Shown: positions 3,313-37,841, counted from the first letter of the stretch. The stretch: DNA of 39,147 nt from Planctomycetota bacterium (GCA_035649615.1 DASRJF010000409.1:1-39147), one strand, 5' to 3'. Notes: generated by a model from the sequence alone, not told the origin. A program made the numbers and translations.

Positions 3313-3558
3313 ATGGCCCCCCGCAAGCTGTACAAGATCGGCGAAGTGATGAAGTACACGAACCTGTCCCGCCAGACCATCCACAACTACACCATGATGG
3401 GCCTCATCCGCGAGGCGGACTGGACCGAGTCGGGCCACCGCCTCTACGCCGAAGAGGTCTTCGACCGCATCCGCAAGATCGAGATGCTCAAGCGGCACCG
3501 GCCCCTCCGGGAAGTGATGGAGATCCTGGGCAAAGAGGACGCCGTCACCAAGTCCTGA
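3313..3558 (+). CDS. MerR-family helix-turn-helix transcriptional regulator (short, 81 aa)
   Basis: GGGAGG RBS at 3302-3307, ATG at 3313. N-terminal MerR-type HTH YKIGEVMKYTNLSRQTIHNYTMMGLI followed by GHRLYAEEVFDRIRKIEMLK. Confidence 0.8.
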   Translation: MAPRKLYKIGEVMKYTNLSRQTIHNYTMMGLIREADWTESGHRLYAEEVFDRIRKIEMLKRHRPLREVMEILGKEDAVTKS

Positions 3559-3561
3559 CCC

Positions 3562-3733
3562 GGAAGCTGGAAGCGGGAAGTTGGAAGCGGGAATCCGGAT
3601 TCCTTCAACCCGCCGTGACCGTCATTCCAAGTTTGAGGTTCCCCATTCCCCATTCCACATTCCTCATTCCCCATTCCCATTCCACATTCCGGATTCCGCA
3701 TTCCATTCCACATTCCATCTTCCACCTTCCTTT
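3562..3733. repeat. Heptamer-periodic repeat block: GGAAGNN x5 array, conserved core, then CCNCATT/CATTCC array
   Basis: ggaagct ggaagcg ggaagtt ggaagcg ggaatcc (3562-3598). Core ccggattccttcaacccgcc. Then ccccatt ccccatt ccacatt cctcatt ccccatt ... ccggatt ccgcatt ... ccatctt ccacctt (3641-3733). The distal part is an imperfect complement of the GGAAG array. Confidence 0.9.
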
Positions 3734-3815
3734 CCAAATTGACTTCACTTCAAGGCCTGTCATGCCGATAGGCTCTTGATAGGGGCCGTTCCGCCTAGTG
3801 AGAGGGAGAGGGGAA

Positions 3816-21594: not shown

Positions 21595-22927
21595 ATGGAG
21601 GGCCCGGGACCGCAAGGTCCTCTGGCATCCCTTCACTCAACACACCGCGTGGGATGAAGAGGACTTCCCGGTCATCGATCGGGCGCAGGGGTCGTGGCTG
21701 TTTGATCTCGATGGAAAAAAGTACCTCGACGGCGTGTCGTCGATGTGGTGCACCGCGGCGGGGCATCTCCATCCGAAAGTTGTCCGGGCCATCTCGCGCC
21801 AGCTTCGGAAGCTCGACCACGCGACGTTTCTCGGGCTGACGAACGTTCCGGCCATCCAGCTCGCGGAGAAGCTGCTGGCGAAGGCGCCGCGCGGGCTCGC
21901 GCGCGTCTTCTATTCCGACAACGGGTCGACGGCGGTCGAGATCGCGCTCAAGATGGCGCTGCAGTATTGGGCGCAGACCGGCCGGCCCGCGCGGACGAAG
22001 TTCATCTCGCTCTCGGAGGCCTACCACGGGGACACGGCCGGGGCGATGAGCGTCGGGGGCGTCGACGTCTTCCTGGATGCCTACCGGCCGCTCCTCTTTC
22101 CCACGATCAAGGCGCCCACGACTTACAGCTATCGGTGCACCAAGGCTTCGACGCTCGACGCGTGCGCGGCTCATTGCGTCGAGGATCTTCGATCGCTGCT
22201 GGATCGACATGCGGACGAGGTCGCCGGGGTAGTCATGGAGCCGGTGGTCCAGGGGGCGGGGGGGATGATCGTCCAGCCGTCGGGGTTCGTGAAGTCGGTC
22301 GAGGAGTTGTGCCGGAAGCACGACACGTTCCTGATCCTCGACGAAGTGATGACGGGGTTCGGCCGGACGGGGACGTTTTTCGCGTGCGAGCAGGACGGCG
22401 TCCGCCCCGACCTGATGGCGATCTCCAAGGGGCTGACGGGCGGCTTCATGCCGCTGGCGGCGACCCTGGCCACGAAGCGGATCTTCGAGGGATTCCTGGG
22501 CGAGGTGAAGGATCGCCAGGCGCTCTACCACGGTCACACGTACACCGGCAACCCGCTCGGCTGCGCGGCGGCGTTGGCGACGCTGGAGGCCTTCGAAGGG
22601 GACCGGATTCTCGAGAAGCTGCCTCCGAAGATTGAGGCGCTCCGGAAGGGTCTGCGTCCCCTGGAGGATCATCCGAACGTGGGGGAGATCCGCCAGCGCG
22701 GCCTCCTGGCGGGGATCGAATTGGTGGCGAACCGCAAGACTCGCGAGTCATTCCCGTATGAGAAGCGGACCGGTCATCGCGTAATCCTGGAGGCTCGGAA
22801 GCGAGGAGCGATCCTCCGTCCACTCGGGGATGTGATAGTTGTCATGCCACCTTTGACGACAACGCTCACGGACCTTCGACGCCTGACAAATATTGTCGTC
22901 GGATCAGTTCGAGCCCGCGTGATTTGA
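21563..22927 (+). CDS. bioA: Adenosylmethionine-8-amino-7-oxononanoate aminotransferase BioA
   Basis: The only in-frame start upstream of the conserved LWHPFTQH is the ATG at 21563 (32-nt overlap with bioF). Also YLDGVSSMWCTAAGH, VFYSDNGSTAVEIALKMA, AYHGDTAGAMSVGG, LILDEVMTGFGRTG, ISKGLTGGFMPLAAT. Confidence 0.9.
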   Translation: MRSSRRSRSAEWRARDRKVLWHPFTQHTAWDEEDFPVIDRAQGSWLFDLDGKKYLDGVSSMWCTAAGHLHPKVVRAISRQLRKLDHATFLGLTNVPAIQLAEKLLAKAPRGLARVFYSDNGSTAVEIALKMALQYWAQTGRPARTKFISLSEAYHGDTAGAMSVGGVDVFLDAYRPLLFPTIKAPTTYSYRCTKASTLDACAAHCVEDLRSLLDRHADEVAGVVMEPVVQGAGGMIVQPSGFVKSVEELCRKHDTFLILDEVMTGFGRTGTFFACEQDGVRPDLMAISKGLTGGFMPLAATLATKRIFEGFLGEVKDRQALYHGHTYTGNPLGCAAALATLEAFEGDRILEKLPPKIEALRKGLRPLEDHPNVGEIRQRGLLAGIELVANRKTRESFPYEKRTGHRVILEARKRGAILRPLGDVIVVMPPLTTTLTDLRRLTNIVVGSVRARVI

Positions 22928-23012
22928 CTTCCACTGGCGGAGCAGTGGGTCCTATAAGTCTGATACTCACGTCCGATAAGGCCGCTACCGTTGCGCTGTC
23001 TACCGTGGCCGG

Positions 23013-23051
23013 AAACAAAAAGAGCCGCGCCTGATCCATCAAGCGCGGCTC
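23013..23051 (-). terminator. Intrinsic-terminator-like hairpin (minus strand) in the left island junction
   Basis: gagccgcgc (23022-23030) / gcgcggctc (23043-23051): a perfect 9-bp stem with a 12-nt loop. On the minus strand it is followed by TTTTTGTTT (complement of 23013-23021). Confidence 0.45.
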
Positions 23052-23589
23052 GACGTCCGCTTTCTCGGCGGCGACCGGAGGTTGCCCATTCTTCGGCTCC
23101 GCCCGGCTGCCTAGCAGCCCATTGCTCTATGTCGTTCCTCACTTCCTGGCGTCGTCCTCCCTGAAGATCCCCCGCCTTCACAAGCGCCCTCGTCCAAACT
23201 CGGCTGACCCCGAACCCGACCGGGCCGGGCGCTACCGCGTCCCGAACCCCCTCCAGGAGGGCCTGGGCAGGTACACCTAGCTTGATGTCGTCACACTCTA
23301 GCCGGCTCTCCCAAAGCCGCAACTTTTCAAAGATACCAGCTTCACAGCATAGCATTTCGCCATCCGTGGACTTGACGGCATCGAAATTCGCATTAAAGCC
23401 GTAATCACCGCCCTTCCGACCAAACCGTCCTTACACTGCGTTAATGTCGTTCCTTCATTTACCTCGAATCTTCAAAACGGCACTCATAGACCCATGTTCT
23501 TTAGCGTAGGATCTCAGTACCACTTCCAAATCCTCGCAAGCTGGAAGATTGTTCCGGCGCACATGAACACCGAATCGTGATAGATCACG

Positions 23590-24651
23590 TTAGTCCTCTT
23601 CCCTGCGAAGGACTCGTTCTGCCATCGCAGCGAGCCGCTCTCCATTGCCAGTGGCCTTCATGCGCGCCGCATAATCTCCAATTGCTTTTCGCATCTGAAT
23701 AGAGTTATTCGAGGATCGCAATAGCGCCCGAAGCGCCGCGCCACCAGCAAACTCATCCTCTGCCCTAAGCTTTGACAGTAGCTCAATAATCACCCCTTCT
23801 CCACCCCCGCTGGGGTCCTTCAAGATGAGACGTACGATAAACTCAACAAAGACATTGTCGTCCCGTAGCAAGTACTGTACCAAGAGTGTGTATTGGGTTC
23901 GAATCGGCTCAAACGGACCATTTCCGTTGGAGGTAAGTTTTTCAAGAAGCGTGTAGATGATGGGTGAATAGTATCTCGGGCCTGTCGGCCCGAGGAGAAA
24001 ACTGAGCAGCTCCTTCATGTCCAGGTCACTTGGCGGTGGTGTCAGAGTCCGGCAAGGGCACTTGACGGTGTGCGAAACGCGAAATCCAACTCCATATGGC
24101 AGCACTTCATCCGCGCGGCGACTTGGATACTCTATGCGCAGGTGCAAATCTCCCAGGCTTGCGATTGCCCCTTGCCTCACCCACTCGTGTTGGTCAGATT
24201 TGACTATCGAGAGAAGCAGATCTATGGAGGCGCGATGGAAACTGGCACACTCGCTGCCCCACACAGGTATGACTGTCCGTACATGGACCACCTTGTATAC
24301 AAGTTCCTGTAGACTCTCTACGGGTCTTCGCACCACTTCCAAGGTGAATTCACTTGGTACCCTCGATCCCATCAAGCAAGAGGTCTTATAATCCTCGTAT
24401 GCCGCCTTTGCGACGGCTTCGAGTTGTGGAAAGAAAGTGGTGGACCGGAATTCGCTTTCCGGAATCTTTGTGATTGATTCTACATCTAGCCTTGAGGGCT
24501 GGGAAGGCTGAGTGGCAGCTGCACCGGCCCTAATTCCTTGCGAGGGATCGCCGTATACAGGGGTCGGGCGGCGGCATGCAGGCAATACAAGTACGAACAG
24601 AGTGAGGCCAATCCTAGACACGGTCAACGCGGACTTCCTAAATACTATCAT
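23590..24651 (-). CDS. Island gene I: probable lipoprotein with helical (ARM/HEAT-like) repeats
   Basis: The ATG at 24651 gives MIVFRKSALTVSRIGLTLFVLVLPAC (lipobox-like LPAC). The C-terminal two thirds are helix-rich (LLSFLLGPTGPRYYSPIIYTLLEKL, LLVQYLLRDDNVFVEFIVRLIL, IIELLSKLRAEDEFAGGAALRALLRS). Confidence 0.6.
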   Translation of the reverse strand: MIVFRKSALTVSRIGLTLFVLVLPACRRPTPVYGDPSQGIRAGAAATQPSQPSRLDVESITKIPESEFRSTTFFPQLEAVAKAAYEDYKTSCLMGSRVPSEFTLEVVRRPVESLQELVYKVVHVRTVIPVWGSECASFHRASIDLLLSIVKSDQHEWVRQGAIASLGDLHLRIEYPSRRADEVLPYGVGFRVSHTVKCPCRTLTPPPSDLDMKELLSFLLGPTGPRYYSPIIYTLLEKLTSNGNGPFEPIRTQYTLLVQYLLRDDNVFVEFIVRLILKDPSGGGEGVIIELLSKLRAEDEFAGGAALRALLRSSNNSIQMRKAIGDYAARMKATGNGERLAAMAERVLRREED

Positions 24652-24696
24652 GATAGTGGCCGAAACGTGCGCACATGTAGCCAATATTCGGATTGA

Positions 24697-25884
24697 TCAA
24701 TAGAGATCCTCTGGGGTGCGGATTTGCGCCTTGAAATCTTCTTTAATGGCCATACCCGGCATTGGCCCAATGGGTGGTACGTCTATTGAGTGAAAGACCT
24801 CCCATGTATCGTTACAATCTTCATTATCTAGAGCAGTGAGAGTCACGCGTACAGCCAACGTGATCTTCCCTCCAAATATCACGGCGAAATCGGTTCTGTC
24901 TGATTTGCGATTGACCTCTTCGCCCTTGTCTTCTCTTGCCTTCCTGTTGCGACTCAGCGCCGTTAGGCCGTCCTTGTGCCAATCGTCTGTGGAGGTCATG
25001 TCTGAAATGGCACGCTTCAGCCCTTTGCCCCAGGTTCCTTGCCAAAGACACTTGATATCCACGCTTTCCCATGTGGTGTCTTCGCTAATCAACGCATTGA
25101 ATTTGACGTATTCGTATTCCCACGTCCAACCTCTTGGGTGCTTATCGGTTTTCTGCTGCCAGCTGTTCATGTAGACGCCTAGCAGATATAGGGACACGTC
25201 TGCTTTCCAGCCTTTTACAAATAGGTACTTTGCAAAATAGTTCGCCTCTATGTCTACATGTCCAGTTATCCTTTGATTATCTCTCTTGTCATAGTATGTT
25301 CCAAAATCTGAGAGTCTGAGTTTGGTATGTATTCGGCTGATCTTGAGAGCGCAATTACAGGTCGTAGTATCTCCGCCGAAATACTGAGGGCTTGGAGGTG
25401 CCAATTGTAGATGTGTAACCGGATGAGATAGGGCCGAGAGGTCAACAGCGAACGTGCTTAGTAATCGAGGCTGATGCTGACTTCCAGTCTGCAAGGGAGC
25501 ATGTGGCGGCGCTGGGGCGGGCAGCTGGGGTGGGACGGTTGCCGGCATCCCCAGACCTTTAAAGGAAGCGGGAGGAACAATGAGGGGCGATTCTGATGAC
25601 GGTCTGCTAACTGCTTGATTGACAATGGGGATGTGATGCGGCAGCATCGGCAATTCGTTGTCGTAGGAATGCTGAATGAACTTCGTGTAGTCATCTGTCG
25701 GCGGCGTTGGAGTTGCATCCATTTTCAGAGGGGGTTCCTCCTCATACCCTTGAGGCAGAGCGAACTGAGATGGCGGAGGAGTTGGATTACTCCCGGGAAG
25801 TTGTTGGTTTGCCGCTTGCTGTTCTACCTGATACTGAGCGAGCCGTCTTGCGTACTCCTCAGCTTCGCTTCGTGAGATTGCCAT
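24697..25884 (-). CDS. Island gene H: modular protein (Pro/Gln-rich N-terminal region, internal VDLSAL motif, beta-rich Trp-rich C-terminal domain)
   Basis: RBS aagggtgg, then ATG at 25884. 395 aa. Residues 1-140 are Pro/Gln-rich. FAVDLSALSHPVTHL at aa 145-159 (DNA about 25402-25452). CxC (TTCNCAL). The C-terminal domain contains WTWEYEY, CLWQGTWGKG. Confidence 0.65.
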   Translation of the reverse strand: MAISRSEAEEYARRLAQYQVEQQAANQQLPGSNPTPPPSQFALPQGYEEEPPLKMDATPTPPTDDYTKFIQHSYDNELPMLPHHIPIVNQAVSRPSSESPLIVPPASFKGLGMPATVPPQLPAPAPPHAPLQTGSQHQPRLLSTFAVDLSALSHPVTHLQLAPPSPQYFGGDTTTCNCALKISRIHTKLRLSDFGTYYDKRDNQRITGHVDIEANYFAKYLFVKGWKADVSLYLLGVYMNSWQQKTDKHPRGWTWEYEYVKFNALISEDTTWESVDIKCLWQGTWGKGLKRAISDMTSTDDWHKDGLTALSRNRKAREDKGEEVNRKSDRTDFAVIFGGKITLAVRVTLTALDNEDCNDTWEVFHSIDVPPIGPMPGMAIKEDFKAQIRTPEDLY

Positions 25885-26036
25885 TAACCACCCTTACTAC
25901 AGAGTCTTACGATCTGTGGATTCCCATTCCGGAGCATGAAAACTCCGTCGTCTTACGTATGTTACTGATTTCCTCTCCCACTTGTCATCTAAATGGTCCT
26001 CGTCGTGCAAATACCGCATACCTCGCTTGTCGGCGG

Positions 26037-27458
26037 CTATTTCTTCTTAGGATTGCAAATCACATGCATTTCCAGCTGTGCACCCAGCGACGCTTGATCA
26101 CCTGTGGCCGTTGCTAGTATTCGTAGCACCCACTTGCGACCTGAAACAGTTGGCGTGCTTTCAGGGTGCTGCTTCCTGTATTCTGCAAATCTGTCTTTGA
26201 ATTCCTTTGAACCGAACGACTCTGCTTCTGTCAATTCGAATTTGCGTTCGAATGTTGCACCTCCTGCGGCGTCGGTCGTTATCACTGCATCCTGGGATTT
26301 CATGCCAACAGATACCCATACGTCTGAGGCAGAGTGGCCACCGAACTTATAGGCCTGATAAAGGGCCCCCGTGCTACCCACTGCGATTCTGGTTGATGGG
26401 GGACCATTCTTAATGGAGGCCGTGAATGACACCCAGTAGGGGCCACCCTTTGCAAAAGTCTGGCACTTGACATTTGTGATGTCTAATTCCATCTGTGTGC
26501 CGGTGACTTTTCCGAAGTTATCTGTTAGTACGGCATAAGCTGTCCTAGTGCACGCACACTTTGTCCTGCCTGTCTTGTCGATGATATTCCCTTTTGCTGT
26601 GATGATGATGCCATACGTTTTCGCACCCTTCTTTACTTCAGGTATTCCCTTATCAATGTCATCCAGGGTGAAGTCAGTTGAGAATGACAACTCCGCTTTG
26701 CTTTCCTCCGATGTCTGTCCGTCGCAATGCAATACCTTAGCTGAGAGCTGTCGTTCGCCGGCGACAACAACAAATGGATCGCCCCAAGGAAATACCATCG
26801 TCGTCTTACAGTTGGGGTGTTTATTCTCTATGTGCACTTTGAACTTGAGGGTCTTCTTTTCTCCGCCTTCAACCTTTGGGTCAGTTATTCTAATAGAAAA
26901 GGTGCACGCAGGAACATCTACATCATCATCCTGCTTCCAAGGAATAGAATAGGAGCCGGATAAGAACGAAGGACCAAGAATCACAACTTCCGGCAATCCG
27001 CCGTTTCCGGCCATGGAGGTTCCAGAGAAATCAATGAGAAAGTCACTACAGTAGATTGGTTTCCACCCCGTGTCAGTAATCTGAGTCGCCCCAGGCACGA
27101 GTGGATCAACTGAAGGGGGCTGGAGTGGCCGAACTGGGGGGTAGCTAGGGGCAGAGTACCCAACTTGCAAAGGCTCTACGATTTTCTGGAAAAGCGAAGA
27201 TGGCGTATTTTGAAACTGTTGGCTATGGCTTTGTGATCTTGGCAAGGGGCTGGGGGGAGAATACGGAGCGGGTCCCGCGTACGCATTCATTGGAGTATCT
27301 GTCAACGCAATCGATGCATGAATTGCTGTTTCAGAATCGATGAAAGGCGAGGAGGGAGGCGGCTGATGACCGATGGCTGCCGGGTCACCTGGAGTATACT
27401 CCATGTTCGGTGGCAAATGGCTCGCATTGTTTCGACGCTCAGCATCCTCGGTTTCCAT
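26037..27458 (-). CDS. Island gene G: modular protein (Pro-rich N-terminal region, beta-rich C-terminal domains), architecture parallel to gene H
   Basis: RBS AGGA 5 nt before the ATG at 27458 (the track ORF extends to 27500). Pro/Ser-rich first about 130 aa. FLIDFSGTS...VVILG segment. CxC (KCACTR). Long beta-rich remainder. No family recognised. Confidence 0.6.
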   Translation of the reverse strand: METEDAERRNNASHLPPNMEYTPGDPAAIGHQPPPSSPFIDSETAIHASIALTDTPMNAYAGPAPYSPPSPLPRSQSHSQQFQNTPSSLFQKIVEPLQVGYSAPSYPPVRPLQPPSVDPLVPGATQITDTGWKPIYCSDFLIDFSGTSMAGNGGLPEVVILGPSFLSGSYSIPWKQDDDVDVPACTFSIRITDPKVEGGEKKTLKFKVHIENKHPNCKTTMVFPWGDPFVVVAGERQLSAKVLHCDGQTSEESKAELSFSTDFTLDDIDKGIPEVKKGAKTYGIIITAKGNIIDKTGRTKCACTRTAYAVLTDNFGKVTGTQMELDITNVKCQTFAKGGPYWVSFTASIKNGPPSTRIAVGSTGALYQAYKFGGHSASDVWVSVGMKSQDAVITTDAAGGATFERKFELTEAESFGSKEFKDRFAEYRKQHPESTPTVSGRKWVLRILATATGDQASLGAQLEMHVICNPKKK

Positions 27459-27594
27459 TAGTGTCCTTAGCAATAAGATCTTTCTCATGCACAGAATCAA
27501 CCATGACTAGCGCTGTTTGGCACAATGCCAGTCTCTTCTCAATTAATAACTAGACACAGGGACCGCACTTTGGGGTCATATTCCGGTAGCATAG

Positions 27595-29055
27595 TCAATG
27601 GTCGCTACCGAAGCGCCACGCCTCGATTAGCTTGTCTGCCATGCATCGCACCGTCTCATCGCCTGAGTGCCTTAGTCTCATCACCTGCGGCTTTGCCTCC
27701 CGGGCGTCTAGACGAACAATTGCGCGGAGCAGAGCACGTTGAGCTTCTTTGTGTTTATTGATTACCGCCCAGTTGATAGCTTTCCGAAGTTCTAGGACTA
27801 AGTCAATTTCAGACTCATAGTCGATTTCATTGGCGCCAGCCTCGACCAGCGATGGATCTGCTGACCCTAGCGCCATGATAATCCATGTGCGCCTCAAACA
27901 TACGGGGAAACCCGCAATCGTCAGCCCATCGTTCTCTTCATGCTTTGGAGTGTCAAATAAGGCGATCACTCCAGCGGTATCAGTGCTACTCTTCTGCCAA
28001 GTGAGTAAAAGGCCGGATCCATCAGGAATCCAAGTGAGTTCCTGGCACATCGCAAAGCCGCGGGCCGGAACTATGTGCTCAATTCCAGAATACAAATGAC
28101 GGATGCGAATTGTGGTGAATTCTGGCAGGAGCTCATCACTCTTGCGTGGAGTATTAAGAAAGGCCACTCGCTCGCCGCTTGGATCTATCGCGGGCGCCCA
28201 TTTCAAGTCCCTGTCAGAGGTGAGCCTCGTCACCATGGTGCCGTAAGGATTGGTCACGTATACGTCAGTGTAAGCAAGTCCCGATCTGCCAATGAAAGTG
28301 AAAAGACGGCTACTGGCATCCCACGCACTCGCAAGAATCGCGTGCGGCGTAGAATCACATGGACCTACGGATTTGTGAGTTGGGGAACCGAAGGCGAGGA
28401 ACGAATGAGTAGCCGTATCAACATTCACGAGACATACGCGCGATACCGGGCAATCTCCGGCACGTTCAAAGAGCCCTTCGATTGCCAGGTGCTTCCCATC
28501 AGGGCTCCACGACACACGTGGCCTCTCCTTGGAACTTAAGACGTGATGAAGCCTAAGTGGAGTTGGCGACCCGTTGCCACGATTCATGAACACCGTCCCG
28601 TCAATGACCGATATGCAGTCTGTATTCGGATCAATGCCTGTAATGTAGCCGAGCCCCTTCTCTTTCTGTAAATCCGCGGAGCCACGCATAGCGATGCGGC
28701 TGTTAATGCTCGCGAGCCAACATGTAGTGTCAGCGCCGACGCTTTTCGAATGTGCCCGATAGTTCCGTCGAAACTCTTCAATCTGCCGACGCAAATCAGG
28801 AGCGTATTTACTAGCTGTCGATGGTGTCAACACTGTTTCAAGATCGATCATCACCGCTTGTAGTGGTCTCTCTCGTTCACACAGAATGGAAAGTCGTGTG
28901 TTGGGACCATCGGCAGAGTTTCCCGTTGTAGGTGCCGTAGAATCCCGGTGATGTAATAGAGCCTCGCCTTGCTCATGTGCCCTGTTAAGCTCAAATGAAT
29001 GCAGTCGTTCTACTAATACTAGCAGCGTCAATAGTAGTATGAAGTGCTTCAACAT
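27595..29055 (-). CDS. Island gene F: secreted TolB-like beta-propeller protein with a C-terminal helical domain
   Basis: The ATG at 29055 gives the signal peptide MLKHFILLLTLLVLV. PD40/TolB-type blades (VSWSPDGKHLAIEG, WAPAIDPSGERVAFLN, LTWIPDGSGLLLTW). C-terminal helices (LVLELRKAINWAVINKHKEAQRALLRAIVRLD). Confidence 0.65.
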   Translation of the reverse strand: MLKHFILLLTLLVLVERLHSFELNRAHEQGEALLHHRDSTAPTTGNSADGPNTRLSILCERERPLQAVMIDLETVLTPSTASKYAPDLRRQIEEFRRNYRAHSKSVGADTTCWLASINSRIAMRGSADLQKEKGLGYITGIDPNTDCISVIDGTVFMNRGNGSPTPLRLHHVLSSKERPRVSWSPDGKHLAIEGLFERAGDCPVSRVCLVNVDTATHSFLAFGSPTHKSVGPCDSTPHAILASAWDASSRLFTFIGRSGLAYTDVYVTNPYGTMVTRLTSDRDLKWAPAIDPSGERVAFLNTPRKSDELLPEFTTIRIRHLYSGIEHIVPARGFAMCQELTWIPDGSGLLLTWQKSSTDTAGVIALFDTPKHEENDGLTIAGFPVCLRRTWIIMALGSADPSLVEAGANEIDYESEIDLVLELRKAINWAVINKHKEAQRALLRAIVRLDAREAKPQVMRLRHSGDETVRCMADKLIEAWRFGSDH

Positions 29056-29145
29056 GTGCTTTTTGCCATCACTAGCCGTTATGACACTCAGAGGGCAATG
29101 AGATCCCAACGCGCATTTCACCATGCACTTCGCGCGGCACATGCC

Positions 29146-30060
29146 TCATGCTCCTGATACTCCGTAGCGTACGCAGGATACCAGGCATTCCATGCCTAGT
29201 GTGACGAAGGAGGAACGCAAGTTGGCGGGGTCCCTCAGAGCACTAAGATCAATTGAAGAACCTGCGAGGAAGAAGGCACCATCCCCCGAAGTCACGCTGG
29301 ATTCCGCAACTCTCTTCTCAGCGATCTCGAAGGCGGAGAGAAACGACGCCGGGCTGAATGCCGGCGTCGAAGATACTTGTGCGGGGGTAGCATACGTTGC
29401 AACCGGGGCCTGAGCCGCGAATTGTGGGAGTGGAGGAGGGGGAAACCCCGGAGGCAGTGGAGGCCCTATTCCTGGAAGGATAGGCGGAGGGGCTCCGGTG
29501 GTCGCCGAAACCGCACCACTCGTCATAGGTGCGGCTTGGTTTGAAGCAGGAGGATTCTGGTCGTACGCCGCCAGGCGCTGTTCAAATTCAGTGAATGCAG
29601 GCTCGGAGGCGAAAAGCACTCCTTGCTCGTAGCGAACACGGGCGATACCACTCTTGCGAGAATAGGCTGAACCAAACTGCATTCCAGCCGGGTTACTCCA
29701 GAAATACAGAGTCTTTACGCCGTGTTTCTGGCGAAGCTCAGCAACCAGATTATCGATGAATTGATTGCGTGGAATCGACAAGTTTAAACCAGGGGTGCGA
29801 CCTCCAACATAGTGTTCGAGGTCGTACACGGCCAGCGCCGCATAGATTTCGCTTAAAGCCGTTTGGACTTCGGCCTGGGAGGATTTCCAATTGTAAATGT
29901 CCTGAGTTGAGCCCCCGGAGATATAAATGCTGTCGGGCGTACCCAGTGGGTAATCATCCATGCCTCCGGAGGCCGGCGCTCGCTTTAGATTGATACCGTA
30001 TTTAGTATTTGCGGCGCTCACCTTTTGGTCAACGAAATAGTTACGATTATAGTCAGGCAT
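29146..30060 (-). CDS. Island gene E: unknown N-terminal domain + poly-Pro linker + C-terminal SALR-PANL module shared with gene D
   Basis: RBS GAGGA, then ATG at 30060. 304 aa. Linker GAPPPILPGIGPPLPPGFPPPPLP. C-terminus GDGAFFLAGSSIDLSALRDPANLRSSFVTLGMECLVSCVRYGVSGA. Confidence 0.65.
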   Translation of the reverse strand: MPDYNRNYFVDQKVSAANTKYGINLKRAPASGGMDDYPLGTPDSIYISGGSTQDIYNWKSSQAEVQTALSEIYAALAVYDLEHYVGGRTPGLNLSIPRNQFIDNLVAELRQKHGVKTLYFWSNPAGMQFGSAYSRKSGIARVRYEQGVLFASEPAFTEFEQRLAAYDQNPPASNQAAPMTSGAVSATTGAPPPILPGIGPPLPPGFPPPPLPQFAAQAPVATYATPAQVSSTPAFSPASFLSAFEIAEKRVAESSVTSGDGAFFLAGSSIDLSALRDPANLRSSFVTLGMECLVSCVRYGVSGA

Positions 30061-30253
30061 TGATCAAGTCCTCACGCTTAGCAATCCAAGGTTATTCCAC
30101 TTGGTGCGGAACTCCGGTGCGATGTTATGTCGCAGGGGCGGACATGCTCTCTAGGCGCACTTGGCAACTCCAATAGCTGATTCGTCCGCCTCAGCGCGTC
30201 AATTGGCTCCAGGATTGACAGGAAGTACCTCATCAGTTCGCCCGGTCCCCGCA

Positions 30254-30505
30254 CTAAAGCCTCGAAAGCCCTTCACGGATGCAGGAGGTCAGATTCTCCG
30301 TTCCCAAGAGCACCGGTGTTGCATCCAGATTCGCTGGGGATCGTAGGGCGCTCATGTCCACCGTGGCTCCCTGGAGGAGAAACGACGTTCCGCTCATGCC
30401 GGGCTGCATGCCGAGACCACCGTTTTGGAGGCCGAGGCTATTTAATGCGAAGGGGTTGCCGTTCGTCATTTCCGTTCCATTGCAGCCGCATCCGTTCGGG
30501 CCCAT
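30254..30505 (-). CDS. Island gene D: small Gly/Asn-rich protein consisting mostly of the SALR-PANL module
   Basis: Strong RBS AAGGAGG 6 nt before the ATG at 30505. 83 aa. C-terminus GTSFLLQGATVDMSALRSPANLDATPVLLGTENLTSCIREGLSRL aligns with the C-terminus of gene E. Confidence 0.6.
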   Translation of the reverse strand: MGPNGCGCNGTEMTNGNPFALNSLGLQNGGLGMQPGMSGTSFLLQGATVDMSALRSPANLDATPVLLGTENLTSCIREGLSRL

Positions 30506-30520
30506 CGAGTCCTCCTTTCG

Positions 30521-30853
30521 CTAGACTCCCGCAAGAAGGTCCAGAAGCTCCTGCTTTTCCTTGGGAGTCAGCACCTTCTTCTGCCGCCGTTTTTCCCTCA
30601 GTGCCGACAGCCGCAGGGCACGACTCTCCTGGATCGACTTTTGCTTCGTTCGTTGCTTGGCCGCGGCTTCAAGCTTCGCTCTGGGCTTGGGTCCAGGCTC
30701 CACCAAAGCCCGCTCAAGCACTTGGCCGGCGCCGTCGACCGCCAAGAACCAGACCGAGCCTTCCTCGTCCTCCTCGCGGAAGTAGGTTGCGCCCACGCGG
30801 GAGCTGACCACCGGGGCCGGCCCTTTCCAGGCGGTCCTCTTCACTTTGATCAT
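30521..30853 (-). CDS. Island gene C: small protein with a beta-rich N-terminal half and a highly basic helical C-terminal half
   Basis: The ATG at 30853 is 1 nt after the gene B stop. 110 aa. C-terminal KPRAKLEAAAKQRTKQKSIQESRALRLSALREKRRQKKVLTPKEKQELL. Confidence 0.55.
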   Translation of the reverse strand: MIKVKRTAWKGPAPVVSSRVGATYFREEDEEGSVWFLAVDGAGQVLERALVEPGPKPRAKLEAAAKQRTKQKSIQESRALRLSALREKRRQKKVLTPKEKQELLDLLAGV

Positions 30854-30854
30854 T

Positions 30855-32162
30855 CTAAACCCTGGCCATCCGATAGAGCGACAATTCCCCCGTGAATCCG
30901 AGGGGGCTGTTGGTCAGAACGTCGATTTGGGTGATGTTCGCCCCCGCGTTGTTCCAGAGCCCAGCATAGGAGGAAAGCTGGGCCACGACGCCTCCCAAGT
31001 CCTGAACTTCGTTGCTGAATACGAATCGAAGGAGGCCAGTTTTCGCCACCATGTGGGCCACGAACCAAGATTCCAGGAGGTTGACTTGGGGTTCCGCAAC
31101 CCTGAGATCTCCGAATACGGCTCCTGCCAAGACAACCCCGGTCGCCACAATCTTCTGGGTGGAGTGAATTCCAAGCGGGGGCAATCCGTTGGGCTGTAGC
31201 GTGATCACGGCCGGGGCGATTGGATCGAGGTTCTTCACCCGGCCGGTCAGGACGTACTGCTCGTCCGCGTCGCCATTGAGCCCGAAGAAGGTCACCAGGA
31301 TGATGGGCGCCACGATCCGCTTCGTCTCGATGAGCTGAAGCCGGTTGAAGTCCAGAGCAAGGGGAGAAGGAACCTGGTAGTCGTTCAGCGTCTGCTCGAG
31401 ATAGACGAGCGCCTCGTCCCACCAGCATGTAACCAGGATAGACGCGTCCACCTCGATGCGCCACGTCAGACTTGTGATGGGGGGCGGAATTATCCCCGAG
31501 ACGGACAGGGTTTCGAAGTTCCCGCTGCCAGTGTGCGGGCTCGACACGAACACGGGAACGCCGTTGGCCGCAACGACCAGCGTCACAGCGCCCGGCCTTG
31601 CGGTTTTTACCTTGCACGAGAACGTCAGATTCCTGCCTGCGAACTCCGCGCAATTCGGAATGACGTCTTGATCAATCTGGACGACCCCCGTGGCCGGAAC
31701 GGTCACGTCGACCTTCATGGAATAGAGGCCGCTTACCACGTCTGGAGGATTCGTTTCTCGAGAAACCGTGTAGCCAGGAGCGGCCAGGTCGCGTGCTATC
31801 CAGCCCTTTGTCAGCGGCGTTCCGCTTGGAGGATTTGTGAAAGTAGTCGCCTCCGTCCAGACTTCGCAGCCGGGGTTGATCACATAGTTGACCTGGTCCG
31901 TGCTGGCAGGAGGAGGCGGCGGCTGCACTGATCCGCCGCCGCCCGCGTACGCGGGAAGGTCAATGCACTGTGTCAGGAACGGCTGCTGCGGCGGTGCCGC
32001 TGGGGGCTTCAACGGAAGCTGATCCGTCAACGTACGAAGCGGCGGGGTCAAAAGTGGAAGCGGCTCCAATGCCGAGAGCAGGCCTGCTTGCAGCAGGGTA
32101 AACGCCTGCCCCCGAATTGCCTCGTCGGGAGTCTTGGAGATCTTGGTCGTCACAAGGTTCAT
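30855..32162 (-). CDS. Island gene B: jelly-roll/carbohydrate-binding-module-like structural protein (fibre/decoration-like)
   Basis: The ATG at 32162 is 2 nt after the gene A stop. 435 aa. Pro-rich linker (aa 40-90). The central segment NYVINPGCEVWTEAT...PLTKGW...NLTFSCKVKT...GNFETLSVSG...WWDEALVY resembles CBM4/9- or galactose-binding-like domains. A second beta-rich C-terminal domain follows. Confidence 0.5.
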   Translation of the reverse strand: MNLVTTKISKTPDEAIRGQAFTLLQAGLLSALEPLPLLTPPLRTLTDQLPLKPPAAPPQQPFLTQCIDLPAYAGGGGSVQPPPPPASTDQVNYVINPGCEVWTEATTFTNPPSGTPLTKGWIARDLAAPGYTVSRETNPPDVVSGLYSMKVDVTVPATGVVQIDQDVIPNCAEFAGRNLTFSCKVKTARPGAVTLVVAANGVPVFVSSPHTGSGNFETLSVSGIIPPPITSLTWRIEVDASILVTCWWDEALVYLEQTLNDYQVPSPLALDFNRLQLIETKRIVAPIILVTFFGLNGDADEQYVLTGRVKNLDPIAPAVITLQPNGLPPLGIHSTQKIVATGVVLAGAVFGDLRVAEPQVNLLESWFVAHMVAKTGLLRFVFSNEVQDLGGVVAQLSSYAGLWNNAGANITQIDVLTNSPLGFTGELSLYRMARV

Positions 32163-32164
32163 TC

Positions 32165-33130
32165 CTAGGGTGTCACTGAGCTATTCGTTCTGATGAGCAT
32201 CTGGGCCGCGGCCACTTCGGATTCCAGGACCAGGCTCACGTTCATGAAAATCCGGTACGTGGTGTTGGCGGTTGCGGCTCCGAGAACTTCCTTCACGCGG
32301 ACGATCTTGCTCCCCCAAACCGCGGGCGTGATGCCGTAGAGTCCGCCCCGGCCCAGGACAAGGGCGTAGATTCCGATGCCGTTGCCTTGGCCCCCAATCG
32401 TGTCCGTAGTGGAAATGTTGTCGTCAATGAGGATGGGGATTCCATCGTAGGTTGGAGTCAGCCTCTGCTTCATGCCTCCATTACAATCAGGCACATTCAT
32501 TAGGGCGTAGTGAGGCCTCAATCCCTTGTCATAGTGAGCCTTCAAGATGTTCTTGTAACCCAGCGTGTGAGTGACCAGGACGTGAGGCCTGCCGCTATTC
32601 GCCTTGATCTGTCCCACCAAGCGGGCAAGGTCATCCAGAACAAGCAGAAATCCCCCTACGTCCTTTGGCAGGATCTTTTGGGCTGCAGGCAAGAGTGCTA
32701 CAATGCCGTTGAACTGCTCAAAGTCTGGTCCTGCTGAGACGCCCGCATATAGCTTGGCGCAAAACTCATAAAGGAATCGCCGGATCGCCGTCTCGAGCTG
32801 GACTCCGACTTGTGAATTTACGTTCGATTCGGTATTGGCTGCAAAATCCATTACGATAACGTCTTGAACGAGCTGCTTGAGCTCGAATGAAACGCTCGTG
32901 GGGATCGTTTTCCCTTCGGTCGTAGCAAAGGCACCGGTGGCCTTGTCCCAGAGCGGCGCAATGCCAAAGTCGCCCGAAGTGGCGGCCCGGTTGATTCTGA
33001 GGGAGTCGCCGTCCACAGGAAAAAACGGCAAGACTTCCAGGCTCTGAACGGGCTTTGGTGCGTTCTCGATGATGTGCGCAAGAAGCTGGTCATTGGACAA
33101 CAGAAGCGATTGAGCTTTCGTCAAGGTCAT
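32165..33130 (-). CDS. Island gene A: putative HK97-fold major-capsid/encapsulin-like shell protein
   Basis: AGGAG RBS (complement of 33139-33143) 8 nt before the ATG at 33130. 321 aa. The order of elements recalls HK97-type capsid proteins: MTLTKAQSLLLSNDQLLAHIIEN, VSFELKQLVQDVIVMDFAANTESN, long helix QVGVQLETAIRRFLYEFCAKLYAG, RPHVLVTHTLGYKNILKA, YDGIPILIDDNIS, YRIFMNVSLVLESEVAAAQMLIR. This is pattern recognition only, no search was run. Confidence 0.5.
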   Translation of the reverse strand: MTLTKAQSLLLSNDQLLAHIIENAPKPVQSLEVLPFFPVDGDSLRINRAATSGDFGIAPLWDKATGAFATTEGKTIPTSVSFELKQLVQDVIVMDFAANTESNVNSQVGVQLETAIRRFLYEFCAKLYAGVSAGPDFEQFNGIVALLPAAQKILPKDVGGFLLVLDDLARLVGQIKANSGRPHVLVTHTLGYKNILKAHYDKGLRPHYALMNVPDCNGGMKQRLTPTYDGIPILIDDNISTTDTIGGQGNGIGIYALVLGRGGLYGITPAVWGSKIVRVKEVLGAATANTTYRIFMNVSLVLESEVAAAQMLIRTNSSVTP

Positions 33131-33478
33131 GGATTGCTCTCCTAATCGATACGAAGTTCTTTCAAGAAATGTGTTAGGTGGATCCAAGCAGTGCGATAGC
33201 GGGTGATGCGAGGTATGCGACGAAGAAATTTGCTTCGGGCTCGATGCAGAAAGTAGGGGCGCATGTCCTCACCGTAACCGCCTTCACCACGATCGGGCCC
33301 CTACTTCCCGATCGGAAGGCCGTTCAGGCGCGTTTCTCAGACTCTGAACTTCACTAACCCTATGACCCTATACGCATTGCGGTCAACAGTTCGTACAGAA
33401 AAAGCGCTCAAGAAAAATGAAAAAAATGGGGGTTGGATAGTGGAGTCCATAAGTTACGGATTTCGTAATCCGTACCGC

Positions 33479-33582
33479 CCGGGGAGGCGGATAGGACTCG
33501 AACTTGATTCATAGGAGCATCTAGAGCATATCCGGGGCCCGGGTCGGACTCGAACGTGGATTGGGGAGCTGCGTCTTTGGAG
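33479..33582 (-). repeat. Two tandem units of about 52 nt, each resembling a tRNA T-loop + 3' acceptor end (att-like remnants)
   Basis: On the minus strand, GTTCGAGTCC occurs twice, 52 nt apart (complement of 33494-33503 and 33546-33555). The first is followed by TATCCGCCTCCCCGG and the second by GACCCGGGCCCCGG. The units align at about 60% identity by eye. The 5' halves of a tRNA are absent. Confidence 0.4.
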
Positions 33583-34839
33583 CTATTTGCCAAGCGCCGA
33601 GCGGAAAAATCCTCGCCTCCAGGCTGTCTCGAGAACAGTGACATCCGCTCCCAATCCGGCCGCCGTCGCCAGTTCGAGGCGCGAGACGGCGTGACGGCCC
33701 TCGAGGAAGAACCACATCGACGCCGCCGCGTACGAAGCCCCCGCGTCCTCGGGCAAACCGTCGCGGCTAATCGCTAATACCAGAAGTTGGTCCGAATGGA
33801 GGGCATCGACTTGGACGTCGGCCGGTGATCCCTCGAGACGGAACGAGACGCCGTTCTCGTGGATCCGCTTGAGCGTTCCCCGCGCGAACTTGCCGTCCGC
33901 CAGCAGGAACGCCACTTCCTGGTTGAGCCTGGCTTTAAGCCCCTTCTGGATCGCCTCCCAGAAAGCAGCCGCGGCCGCGGCCGCCGCGCGGTCCGCCGCC
34001 AGCAGGTCCTTGCACGGCGCCAGGGCCGGATCCGCGAGGGCCGCATCCAGGTCCTTGATCACCTCCGCATAGGCGCGCTCTTTCAGCCGCTTCAGGAGCC
34101 GCTGCGCGCGGTCGCCGAACGCCTTGCGGGCGCCCTCTTCGACCGACGCCGTCCGCTTCGCTTCCTGGGCCTGCCGATACTGGTCCAGCAGCTGGAGATC
34201 GACCTCCGCGGGCTCCTGGATCTGCGGAATCGACTGCTGCGCCGCGGACTTGAGCAGACGAACCGCCTCGTCGATGGATCCCGCGGTGGCGGCGGTCTTG
34301 GCGGCTCGAACCGCCTTTCCATACTCCTGGCGCGCTGAATTTTCGATGTTGGCGATCAGCGCCGCCGCCCGACGCTTGAGCGGATCCTTTTTCGTCGACT
34401 CGCCGAATCGGGCGAGCCCGGCCACCGCCTCTCCAAATCGACCCGCCTTCGTCAGCTCCACCGCGTCCTGCCTGGGTTTTTCGAATTCGAGGTCGATCGC
34501 CTTCTGCAGACTGGCCTCGAGCTCCACGCACCGGGCGGCCGCCATTCGACCCGCCTGGGTGAAGGGGTGTCGCACGCAGACGTCGTGGTACCCGGATTGC
34601 GCGAGTTCGGGCCGGTCGGGCTTTTCGCGACGGGCGGCGTCGTCCAGGAGCGCCTTCGCCAGGGACTCCGCGGATTCCTCCTGGGCCGGGCCCTTCGCCG
34701 GCCCCGAATCCGGCGGCTTGGTACTCGAGTTCGCGACCGGCGAGGTCTTCGGCGCCGCCGCCGGGTCGGGCGACTCTGAGCCACCGCATCCCGGCATCAG
34801 CAGGGCGGCCGACATCGCTAACAGAAGTCTGGAAGTCAT
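33583..34839 (-). CDS. Probable lipoprotein, helical, unknown function
   Basis: The ATG at 34839 overlaps the stop of the upstream HEAT gene (ATGA). MTSRLLLAMSAALLMPGCGG (lipobox-like). 418 aa, Ala/Glu/Lys-rich helices. The track ORF 33583..36021 is an alternative-frame N-terminal extension. Confidence 0.65.
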   Translation of the reverse strand: MTSRLLLAMSAALLMPGCGGSESPDPAAAPKTSPVANSSTKPPDSGPAKGPAQEESAESLAKALLDDAARREKPDRPELAQSGYHDVCVRHPFTQAGRMAAARCVELEASLQKAIDLEFEKPRQDAVELTKAGRFGEAVAGLARFGESTKKDPLKRRAAALIANIENSARQEYGKAVRAAKTAATAGSIDEAVRLLKSAAQQSIPQIQEPAEVDLQLLDQYRQAQEAKRTASVEEGARKAFGDRAQRLLKRLKERAYAEVIKDLDAALADPALAPCKDLLAADRAAAAAAAAFWEAIQKGLKARLNQEVAFLLADGKFARGTLKRIHENGVSFRLEGSPADVQVDALHSDQLLVLAISRDGLPEDAGASYAAASMWFFLEGRHAVSRLELATAAGLGADVTVLETAWRRGFFRSALGK

Positions 34840-36227
34840 GGCTGCTTCGCGCCCGGCAATTTGCGATCGAAGATCTTCAGCTCTTCCGGGGAAACCGGAA
34901 AATCGTTCTCCTCCTGTTCCTTCCAGAAGAGCTTCTCGTCGTCGTCGATGTGGCGCTTGTACTGGGCGTACCACTTCTGGAGCTCGCTCACGCCGTCGAT
35001 TTCCTCCCGCGTGATCCGCTGCGCGAGGACCCGCGCCAGGCGGCGCACCTCGTCGTTGCCGCCGCCGAGGAGCTCCATCACCAGGGGAATCGCCACGCCC
35101 CCCGTCTTCTCGATGGCGTTGAACGACACCGTCATCAGGTCGCGGCTCCCGCCCATCGCGACCTTGAAACTCGCCAGCGCCCCCGCGTCGCGCAGCATGC
35201 CGAGCTGCCGGACGGCCTCCAGCCGGACCTCCGGATCCTTCGACTTGAGCATCGTCTCGCGGAGCTCCTCCACCGCCCGCGACCGGTGCTTCCGGAAGGC
35301 CGACGCGAAGAGGGCGCGCATCCGGACGTCGTGCGGAGGTTTGGCCCGGAGACAATCCCCCAGCAGGTCGCACGCCGGCGCGTCCGGAAGCCGGCGGGCG
35401 AGGGAGAGGACGGCGTGCCGGCGCGCGAGATCCTCCTCGGCCGGGGCCCAGGCGAAATCGGACTTGAGGCGAGGGCCCACGTCGAGCCGCGCGAGCGCCT
35501 CGACGATCGCGGCCAGCGCGTCCTTGTCCTTCTCGACCCGCATCGCCTTCGCGAGAGCGCTCAACGCGTGCGGAGCGGGCGGGCTGATCAGCGCCTTCGC
35601 CGATTGCATCCGCTCGGCGGCCTGGTCCGAGGCGAGCCCCGCCACGGCCGTTTCCTGGCCCGGGCCGAGGTCGTCCGTGATCTCGGGGCGTTGGACTTCC
35701 TGGGGCAGGGACCCGAACGTGAGATTGAGCCGCTCGAGGGGCACCGGCTCCGGCGGCTTCTCCGCCGGATCCTCCACGCCGCCCGTCGCGCCCTTGGCGT
35801 CTCGGACCAGCCGCATGAACTGGAAGAGCCGGCCCTTGAGGCCCGCCAGCGCGTCCCGCTCGGAGACCGGCGCGCGCTTTTCCAGGATCTCGATGAGGTC
35901 GCGCGTCTCGTTGCAGATGTCGATGCTGACCATGAGCTGCCGGCGCCTCATCGGATCGCGATCCGGCTTCGCGGAGGCCTCCTCGAAGAGCTTCGTGGCT
36001 TGGTCCATCCGCGATTCGCACAGCCGGCGCGCCTGGGCCAGGGATGTAAAGTCGGCGATGACGGAAATGGCCGGCAGTCGGATCGTGCCCTTGGCGGTGA
36101 CGACGACGACCTCGACGCCTTCCCGGGTGACCTGGCCTTCGTGGATCTTGCCGTCGCGCGTGATGACCGTGTGATCCGCAAGAGTGCCCAGGAAGAGAAG
36201 TGGGCCGAGGAAGAAAAGAGAGCGCAT
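34836..36227 (-). CDS. Secreted HEAT-repeat protein
   Basis: MRSLFFLGPLLFLGTLA signal. HEAT-like repeats (HALSALAKAMRVEKDKDALAAIVEALARL, KDPEVRLEAVRQLGMLRDAGAL, AIPLVMELLGGGNDEVRRLARVLAQRI). 463 aa. Confidence 0.7.
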   Translation of the reverse strand: MRSLFFLGPLLFLGTLADHTVITRDGKIHEGQVTREGVEVVVVTAKGTIRLPAISVIADFTSLAQARRLCESRMDQATKLFEEASAKPDRDPMRRRQLMVSIDICNETRDLIEILEKRAPVSERDALAGLKGRLFQFMRLVRDAKGATGGVEDPAEKPPEPVPLERLNLTFGSLPQEVQRPEITDDLGPGQETAVAGLASDQAAERMQSAKALISPPAPHALSALAKAMRVEKDKDALAAIVEALARLDVGPRLKSDFAWAPAEEDLARRHAVLSLARRLPDAPACDLLGDCLRAKPPHDVRMRALFASAFRKHRSRAVEELRETMLKSKDPEVRLEAVRQLGMLRDAGALASFKVAMGGSRDLMTVSFNAIEKTGGVAIPLVMELLGGGNDEVRRLARVLAQRITREEIDGVSELQKWYAQYKRHIDDDEKLFWKEQEENDFPVSPEELKIFDRKLPGAKQP

Positions 36228-36250
36228 TTATCTAACCTGCTTTACTCGCA

Positions 36251-36351
36251 GATTGTGGATTGTCGATTGTGGATTGTGGAGATCCGATTCCTTTCAACCC
36301 GCTCTGCCGGCGCCTGCGGAATCCAAAATCCACAAGCCAAAATCCAAAATC
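36251..36351. repeat. Heptamer-periodic imperfect inverted repeat (GATTGTG x4 facing AAAATCC/ACAAGCC x5) with the conserved core
   Basis: gattgtg gattgtc gattgtg gattgtg ga. Core gatccgattcctttcaacccgc (compare 3592-3620). Then ggaatcc aaaatcc acaagcc aaaatcc aaaatc. Lies between the gatB stop and the HEAT gene start. Confidence 0.9.
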
Positions 36352-36380
36352 TGGCGGGGTTCACATCTAGGTCCGATGTT

Positions 36381-37829: not shown

Positions 37830-37841
37830 GATCGAGGAAAG

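Follow-up and report, generated by a model that had tools for sequence, protein, structure and literature searches.

Can a capsid gene that stands apart from all genes for DNA packaging belong to something other than a virus? A soil Planctomycete raises this question: on a contig of its metagenome-assembled genome (MAG; Planctomycetota bacterium, GCA_035649615.1, DASRJF010000409.1, positions 1-39147) lies a nine-gene island headed by a capsid-type gene. The whole stretch of 39,147 nucleotides that was analysed is called the window, and the nine genes of the island, all on the minus strand, are called A to I (Table 1). The finding is real and unusual. The island is neither a prophage nor a member of any encapsulin family, and its behaviour is that of a module from a mobile element that spread recently, and not that of an old host organelle.

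Gene A encodes an HK97-fold capsid-type protein, which is a divergent member of phrog_212. It matched phrog_212 (PHROG 212, 'major head protein') with an E-value of 2.9e-14 over residues 1-296, and the epsilon15 gp7 capsid model MCP_gp7_epsi_15 with E 1.8e-6, which is below the curated cut-off of that model. Alignment with the capsid proteins of 157 sequenced (sipho)phages gave 27-29% identity over 97% of the length. A profile search of 1.84 billion representatives revealed 399 clusters of the A superfamily (30 at E<1e-30), and 80 out of the 87 superfamily members scanned matched phrog_212. No Pfam family was found for A at E<=0.1, neither a phage-coat family nor one of the encapsulin families, which we take to be PF04454, PF19307, PF05065 and PF08967. 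Sequence searches of the PDB with A and with the A-family profile gave nothing significant. The AlphaFold2 (AF2) model of A, based on 20 homologues, is moderate (pTM 0.56, pLDDT 58). With this model Foldseek returned 45 PDB and 55 viral matches at E<=1e-3, and those listed were all capsids or encapsulins. The top seven PDB matches correspond to Family 2 encapsulins (E 6e-11 to 1.5e-8), and viral capsid proteins in BFVD were matched at E 2e-9. Since encapsulins and viral capsids both match the model, A has an HK97 fold without exclusive affinity to encapsulins. The original prediction, made by reading the DNA alone, had called A an HK97-fold shell protein, and these searches support it.

Genes required for a complete phage were not identified. 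Among B to I, searches with Pfam, PHROGs, NCBIfam and PADLOC detected no portal, terminase, protease, tail tube, tape measure, integrase, replication or lysis gene, in agreement with what had been noticed at first, and the rest of the 39-kb contig likewise yielded no gene for phage packaging, protease, tail, lysis, integration or replication. An integrase remnant could not be detected in the window by tblastn, and the PADLOC defence models found nothing among the island proteins. Packaging genes (portal, terminase) were also absent from about 110 kb of related loci. In phage Effie, which possesses a homologous capsid, the capsid gene is directly preceded by an annotated terminase gene and by two unannotated genes whose sizes fit a portal and a scaffold, and an annotated tape measure gene lies downstream of it. 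Six-frame comparison gave no counterpart of any of these genes, neither in the window nor in the related loci. Lacking portal, terminase, protease, tail and lysis genes, the island alone cannot make an infectious phage. The earlier statement that the operon matches neither a normal prophage nor a described encapsulin operon is supported.

The island also differs from its surroundings in composition. In 1-kb windows the G+C content is 0.49-0.60 at about 23.0-33.5 kb, with a minimum of 0.49-0.50 at 24.5-27.5 kb, whereas it reaches 0.64-0.75 in the flanks. G+C at third codon positions (GC3) is 0.50-0.77 in the nine genes against 0.81-0.82 in bioA and the host gene for a 418-aa protein, and the tetranucleotide distance to the flanks is 0.49-0.78 within the island against 0.13-0.19 outside. 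These values bear out the abrupt low-G+C island that had been estimated by eye. Both flanks are cellular, with flhA, flhF, a fliA-like sigma factor gene, surE, bioF and bioA on one side, and genes for the 418-aa protein, a HEAT protein, gatB, Wzy_C, a glycosyltransferase and pyrF on the other. Within the island (23590-33130) GC3 changes from 0.68-0.77 in A-D to 0.50-0.55 in E-I, a step that suggests two modules combined into a mosaic.

Independent gene calls on 12 other contigs reproduced the nine open reading frames (ORFs), except that F began at 29142 (515 aa). The nine minus-strand ORFs first proposed therefore stand, as do the spacers of 2, 1 and 15 nt between A/B, B/C and C/D, and only the proposed F start at 29055 is ambiguous. 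A 58-aa ORF with a GTG start between D and E (30078-30254, minus strand), given by some gene callers, has no homologues and is doubtful. The limits first assigned to the island, 22928-33582, hold for the low-G+C block in part. The leftmost ~500 bp (22928-23427) are host-like, that is, polymorphic and of intermediate G+C, and the block that is invariant in the population covers 23428-33899 instead.

The identical island was found at the same site in 12 contigs and in at least six haplotypes. In an alignment of eight independent contigs no variant site was present in the invariant block (10,472 bp), against about 145 expected, and 17 and 73 variant sites were found in 22165-23427 and 33900-39147, respectively. 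The flanks of the strains differ by about 1.4% around this segment of zero diversity. Hence the island is far younger than the divergence between strains in its flanks, which points to a gene-specific sweep or a recent transfer. An empty site was not found. Every contig with an identical bioA carries the island, so that the empty junction between bioA and the host lipoprotein gene envisaged in the original prediction did not appear among them.

Close homologues of A are rare. Only about 22 were detected in 5.8 billion proteins, and they are associated with Planctomycetes. In GTDB the family is present in one species, a Planctomycetales MAG with two copies, and it was found in none of 2.9 million viral contigs of IMG/VR. 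The related loci (numbered with L) belong to three island types. L007/L008, with an A 83% identical to that of the window, harbour an XRE regulator, A, a B-like gene, a methyltransferase, D, E, an H-like gene, a lipoprotein gene and a tyrosine integrase. L001 and L004/L005 (A about 50% identical) encode a sigma-54 activator, A, three proteins of unknown type, B, C and effector-like genes; similar to the island of the window, L001 and L004 are low-G+C islands. L003, L009/L011 and L010 possess a sigma-like gene and one or two A paralogues followed by small genes, some of which, in the L003/L009 type, are syntenic with the tail and baseplate region of virus Rctr197k. The layout of a regulator followed by a capsid gene thus occurs with three different regulators, the sigma-54 activator in L001/L004, XRE in L007 and the sigma-like gene in L003/L009. 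These three portal-less types share only the capsid (50-55% identical) and the partner B, and no replication or terS gene was found in any related locus.

In every comparison between loci pN was far under pS, for A, B, C, D, E and a 312-aa gene that follows the capsid gene in L001/L004, and the dN/dS of A was 0.03-0.07. This indicates that these genes have been functional. Together with the recurrence of the packaging-less layout in three island types, it disfavours the heavily decayed phage module that had been offered as one candidate at first. The other candidate, a system domesticated by the host, is not right in the form first given, in view of the foreign composition, the zero diversity across strains and the integrase in the sister island.

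The invariant core of this rare Planctomycete-associated lineage consists of two genes, capsid A and a protein with an anchor motif. The motif PDEAIxGxxFTLLxAGxL is present in exactly one copy per locus in eight out of eight loci (hidden Markov model (HMM) E 1e-18 to 1e-20; next match >1). It is always N-terminal and always in the gene immediately 3' of the capsid gene. The protein that carries it varies: it is a ~100-aa protein in L003 and L009, a fusion with tail-fibre repeats in L007 and, in B, a fusion with a domain similar to a carbohydrate-binding module (CBM). This domain, a beta-sandwich, is the sole confident part of the AF2 model of B (pLDDT 64-90). Foldseek matched it to CBM4-2 structures (4bj0/2y6k; TM-score (TMt) 0.70-0.73, root-mean-square deviation 3.1-3.6 A, E 2e-5), and also to the tailspike TSP4 of CBA120. 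Against PHROGs, B gave a weak tail-fibre match. Weak matches of B to pgp3/TNF-like proteins were not used, since its N-terminus and residues 255-435 were left unmodelled by AF2 (pLDDT <50). The C-terminal part of B has 7 homologues in 5.8 billion proteins, all within systems of the A/B type. Full-length homologues of B (44-46% identity) adjoin C in L001 and L004, where the homologues of C (36-38% identity) lie directly 3' of B; no family match was obtained for C. Head fibres of tailed phages offer a parallel, such as gp8.5 of phi29, which is encoded right after the capsid gene, and the head spikes of gene transfer agents. Similar to head fibres, B is encoded directly 3' of the capsid gene and combines a putative N-terminal anchor with an exchangeable distal domain that may bind a ligand. 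However, head fibres belong to complete virions with portal and tail, and no sequence similarity between them and B was found.

Genes D and E share a C-terminal module of 45 aa with each other and with their L007 counterparts (HMM E ~1e-28). The module of D (HMM E ~3e-29) and that of E (HMM E 4e-29) are 54% identical, and the L007 homologues of the two proteins are 50% (D) and 39% (E) identical. The original prediction had assigned a shared docking-like module to four proteins; this holds for D and E, whereas H was marginal (E 0.12) and nothing was detected in G, and the module was not accepted for these two. E had no phage, PDB or Pfam match, and its identification with the 312-aa gene of L001/L004 was rejected (hhalign probability 0.4%). 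All profile matches of F were sub-threshold, with TolB TIGR02800 at E 0.056 and propeller proteins at E 0.2-0.5, and so was that of I with HEAT_2 (E 0.005). G had no match in any profile library, the PDB or phages. H shares residues 1-162 with the 581-aa protein of L007 (8865-10610; 29% identity), and each of the two genes precedes a lipoprotein gene, although the two lipoproteins differ. None of E, F, G, H and I found a significant match when its sequence was searched against the PDB, and E, G and H were without a tblastn match among 50,697 phage records. A toxin domain could not be recognised in G or H.

Among the proteins that have been studied, the one closest to A is Bt075 of Bacillus thuringiensis israelensis (Bti), encoded on pBtoxis. 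A is 28% identical to Bt075 of a pBtoxis-type plasmid over 95% of its length (E 3e-13), the A-family profile gave 107 bits (E 1e-34) for Bt075 against 89 bits for the Effie capsid protein, and the A family has the Bt075-like clade (P0046-P0050) as its next neighbour. Bt075 is derived from a phage capsid protein, and mass spectrometry identified it in the fibrous, hexagonally patterned matrix that surrounds the toxin crystals of Bti (Rudd et al. 2023, PMC10669011). In the same study a Bt075-GFP (green fluorescent protein) fusion was found at the parasporal body, the lectin-domain protein Bt152 was described as binding the Bt075-containing matrix, a Planctomycetes 'capsid protein' was given as the best database match of Bt075, and putative exapted clades were drawn (PMC10669011). 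Both A and Bt075 are orphan capsid homologues of ~290-320 aa in the phrog_212-related superfamily, with no phage genes around, and the lectin-domain partner of Bt075 has its parallel in the CBM-like domain of B. In contrast to A, which heads a nine-gene operon with an anchor-motif partner, Bt075 is a lone gene amid transposons on a Firmicute toxin plasmid. pBtoxis has no counterpart of any of B-I, and the role of Bt075, a matrix round crystals of ~1 um, is only partly established. Among the orphan capsid homologues of this kind, Bt075 alone is known to localise to a protein matrix that encloses other proteins. Bt075-like genes are also present in Paenibacillus roseus and on the metagenomic contig L034, as orphan, tandem paralogues beside a collagen-like fibre gene; the collagen-like (GPTGxTG) gene of P. 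roseus splits the capsid-like pair, and this pair is followed by a gene for an HExxH protein. The anchor module, the D/E module and the WDW module described below were not found in the pBtoxis, Paenibacillus and L034 loci. The link to Bt075, the universal N-terminal anchor motif of B and its CBM-like domain are new beyond the original prediction.

We propose, with a probability of roughly 40%, that the island is a recently acquired, mobile capsid module without packaging functions, composed of a shell or lattice, an anchored fibre, docked partners and the envelope proteins F and I. A would self-assemble into a portal-less and tail-less shell or lattice, similar to a procapsid or an encapsulin, or into a hexagonal sheet as proposed for Bt075. 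B would be fixed to this lattice through its N-terminal motif, and its Pro-rich linker would display the putative sugar-binding domain (CBM4/22-like) as in a head fibre, with C assisting B. D and E would dock via their shared C-terminal module behind long disordered linkers, and G and H, which have Pro-rich N-termini, may likewise dock or be loaded as partners. F and I would be exported accessory proteins, possibly protective. In this scheme we infer assembly, docking, the inside or outside topology and the biological role.

Several points weigh against this proposal. That A assembles without portal or scaffold is an assumption, and its AF2 model is of only moderate quality and leaves the N-terminal 86 residues unmodelled. 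The docking role of the motifs would hold by analogy, and the result for the D/E module was marginal in H and negative in G. No recognisable cargo enzyme was found in the island. Zero diversity speaks for recent spread and is silent on selection in this host, where function is what we infer. The L003/L009 relatives possess a CI-like repressor and have tail-related genes in common with Rctr197k, so that in them the capsid may be a genuine protein of the virion, and the island might depend on such a phage.

A category for such elements exists. Tail-less and portal-less 'mini' HK97 entities of ~9 kb, described as temperate, encode a capsid protein together with sigma factors and repressors as regulators and with an integrase, and they lack genes for terminase, portal and tail (Aguilar et al. 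2025 preprint, 10.1101/2025.06.18.659913). Elements with a capsid and no packaging genes are thus a recognised, if young, category, and the ~10.5-kb island, with the integrase and XRE regulator of L007, resembles them. The entities of the preprint differ in being from the human gut and in having terminal repeats, encapsulin Pfam domains in the capsid and RepA/helicase (10.1101/2025.06.18.659913), and, unlike them, the window is devoid of replication, integrase and regulator genes and harbours six extra large proteins.

If the island did depend on a phage, it could be a satellite or hitch-hiker with its own capsid and head fibre, to which a helper phage of the L003/L009 type gives portal, terminase and tail, and which this helper packages and transfers. 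We consider this unlikely. The ~10-kb size and the island-like insertion are similar to those of phage-inducible chromosomal islands (PICIs), capsid-forming PICIs (cf-PICIs) and P4, and active transfer would fit the very recent spread across strains and the two ~95% identical copies within one MAG. A tyrosine integrase and XRE-type regulators are present as well, but only in the sister island L007, and in L003/L009 the capsid family stands beside tail-related genes and a CI/ImmA pair. Against it, the window lacks integrase, regulator or master repressor, replication, terS and capsid-redirecting (size-redirection) genes, and no direct (att) repeats joining the two island ends were found on searching. 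Even in the putative helper-type loci no portal or terminase was found, and the family is absent from the IMG/VR contigs mentioned above. Moreover, known cf-PICIs also encode portal, protease and connectors.

Several observations were made in loci of this putative helper type. An ordered module that encodes four proteins, of 85/88 aa, 163-173 aa (two of them) and 402 aa, is present at L003 10457-12967, at L009 11642-12431 and at 13706-15926 of Rctr197k (L026, KX853510.1), a 197-kb record from a denitrifying anaerobic methane oxidation (DAMO)/anammox enrichment culture. Identity to this record is up to 71%, and in Rctr197k the module adjoins baseplate-wedge and minor-tail genes. L009 encodes at 1748-6003 a protein similar to retron-type reverse transcriptases (RTs), 41% identical to phage retron RTs over its N-terminal half; its gene adjoins a Peptidase_S24 repressor and M78 ImmA pair, 5' of the capsid operon. 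One Planctomycetales MAG, GCA_964468745.1 (L009/L012 and L011), harbours two copies of the capsid element that are 90-98% identical, one of which has an insertion of ~2.5 kb (a 488-aa ORF and a reverse ORF) between the sigma-like and capsid genes.

A second alternative, that the island is an inert remnant, composed of a structural fragment of a prophage and cargo genes that were recently recombined in and have not yet decayed, is more doubtful. Foreign composition and zero diversity both indicate a recent arrival, so that intact ORFs would need no selection here; the integrase and regulator of L007 are missing from the window, and the internal G+C gradient hints at a mosaic. Nevertheless, the capsid-first layout without packaging genes recurs in three island types under strong purifying selection, with capsids 50-55% identical. 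The tight spacing of A-D also speaks against a remnant, and an identical copy in at least six haplotypes and 12 contigs is sweep-like and not what is expected of junk.

The sister loci bring in a third possibility. A specific ~90-aa N-terminal module, WDWxxGW...HGAR, was found in four proteins of L001, L003 and L004 (HMM E 1e-33 to 1e-44) and in two further ORFs (E 5e-23 and 1e-15), and L003_14968 matched weakly (E 3e-4). The C-terminal parts of these proteins vary: an SLT transglycosylase and a DUF2515 domain are over the Pfam cut-off, and two are of unknown type. For two WDW proteins, GIY-YIG and HExxH/metallopeptidase readings were sub-threshold (E 0.09 and 0.03) and were kept as hints only. 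Three of the WDW genes are followed by a gene for a predicted lipoprotein, and L003_14968 by one for an RraB-domain protein. By analogy, this layout resembles polymorphic toxin-immunity cassettes. The shell or lattice might accordingly hold or carry polymorphic toxic effectors, with exported lipoproteins as immunity proteins, and the toxin-enclosing matrix of Bt075 would be a precedent. In the window, the WDW module is absent and the likeness is limited to the H/I pair, by analogy with L007, in which a common N-terminus is joined to a different C-terminal domain and followed by a different lipoprotein. No toxin domain was recognised in G or H, a delivery route is not evident, and the cassettes may merely ride on the same mobile elements, which leaves this possibility improbable. 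Similarly improbable is a broader version, in which a mobile capsid family without packaging genes would form a lattice with an anchored sugar-binding fibre, dock polymorphic effectors through modules and guard its producers with exported lipoproteins.

Encapsulins, of which Families 1-4 were defined by Andreas & Giessen 2021 (PMC8346489), are the last comparison. Similar to Family 2 (SrpI, Mmp1 and the two-component 2B shells), which gave the best PDB fold matches, A is an HK97 shell protein without portal or terminase. Its neighbourhood is free of phage genes, a criterion for encapsulins, tandem shell paralogues occur in some relatives, as in the two-component Family 2B shells, and, as with the partners of encapsulins, short conserved modules (B N-terminus, D/E C-terminus) lie behind long disordered linkers, in proteins where no enzyme domain was recognisable. 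A bona fide host nanocompartment of the encapsulin type enclosing an enzymatic cargo is nevertheless very improbable, because A has no encapsulin Pfam match, belongs by sequence to a phage capsid family and is matched about equally by viral capsids (E 2e-9), the partners are fibre-like or exported, which is atypical, no enzymatic cargo is recognisable, and the island is mobile and recently acquired and not a vertically inherited organelle.

The non-coding region upstream of A (Table 1) harbours a 25-nt element at 33462-33486 (minus strand) with the palindrome TACGGATT-acga-AATCCGTA. It is 88% conserved at L007 3375-3399, just 5' of the XRE regulator gene, which the window does not possess, and could serve as an operator or mark an end of the island. 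A T-loop-like sequence, GTTCGAGTCC, is present twice at the right edge of the island (33488-33506 and 33540-33558, 52 nt apart). A tRNA or att remnant at this boundary was rejected, since the two copies form no T-arms and ARAGORN and Rfam found nothing; no tRNA or Rfam family was detected in the whole window. A sigma-54 promoter upstream of A, suggested by the activator of L001/L004, was dropped, as the consensus TGGC-N7-TTGC had no match in the window or the related loci. Downstream of I, the strongest terminator-like hairpin is situated within the polymorphic, host-like segment and could thus end transcription of bioA too, the two units being convergent.

Two further observations concern the relatives. 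Tandem capsid-like paralogues recur in L003 (6799-8773), L010 (6268-8252), L032 (3517-6379) and L034 (8001-9673). In L001 (1-8229) an RtcB/RtcA/RtcR RNA-repair operon, a Ro60-like vWA protein and two RlaP nucleotidyltransferases adjoin the island, which is probably host context.

Table 1. Features of the island and of related loci; positions refer to the window unless a locus is named.
Feature	Length	Position	Strand	Remarks
A, HK97-fold major-capsid-type protein (HZN63464.1)	321 aa	32165..33130	-	divergent phrog_212 member, Bt075 relative
B, modular capsid partner	435 aa	30855..32162	-	anchor motif, Pro-rich linker, CBM4/22-like beta-sandwich, C-terminal domain
Anchor motif of B, residues ~9-33		32064..32138	-	TPDEAIRGQAFTLLQAGLLSALEPL; by HMM
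CBM4/CBM22-like carbohydrate-binding beta-sandwich of B, residues ~103-254		31401..31856	-	predicted with AF2 and Foldseek
C	110 aa	30521..30853	-	always adjoins full-length B; chaperone-like by position only
D	83 aa	30254..30505	-	Gly/Asn/Met-rich; C-terminal D/E module at residues 39-82, nt 30260-30391
E	304 aa	29146..30060	-	N-terminal domain, Pro-rich linker, C-terminal D/E module at residues 260-304, nt 29149-29283
F	486-515 aa	27595..29142	-	signal-like hydrophobic N-terminus, PD40/TolB-like beta-propeller 'SPDG' motifs; start 29142 or 29055
G	473 aa	26037..27458	-	Pro-rich N-terminal ~140 aa and beta-rich C-terminal domain
H	395 aa	24697..25884	-	N-terminal 160 aa common to the 581-aa L007 protein; C-terminal domains differ
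I, predicted lipoprotein	353 aa	23590..24651	-	lipobox LPAC and one weak HEAT-like repeat
Population-invariant block		23428..33899	.	island proper with 317 bp from the 3' end of the 418-aa host gene
Non-coding region upstream of the operon		33131..33582	-	25-nt element and two copies of GTTCGAGTCC
Strongest terminator-like hairpin		23022..23051	-	13-bp stem and T run; downstream of I, between bioA and I
WDW-module proteins, L001		14826-16091, 19131-20267		
WDW-module proteins, L004		10257-11324, 12041-13273, 13392-14477		
WDW-module proteins, L003		575-1450(-), 14968-16185		

Capsid proteins outside the life cycle of a virus are known mainly as encapsulins, and Bt075 hinted at a second, independent exaptation from another capsid family, in the form of a lone gene without known partners. 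The island of this Planctomycete joins the few cases in which a capsid gene is re-used apart from a complete virus, here with a defined partner set and a presumed function of its own. It adds a two-gene core, exchangeable fibre-like heads, candidate docking modules and a signature of recent spread. Thereby it becomes testable how capsids are re-used free of portal and DNA packaging, what is attached to them or enclosed, and whether capsid modules move selfishly or sweep through a benefit to the host. In the improbable broader version with docked effectors, the family would represent a capsid device that sequesters or delivers proteins instead of DNA, related to the matrix of the Bt075 toxin organelle. 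The island is also of interest for the exchange that has been proposed to run in both directions between viral procapsids and protein compartments of cells.

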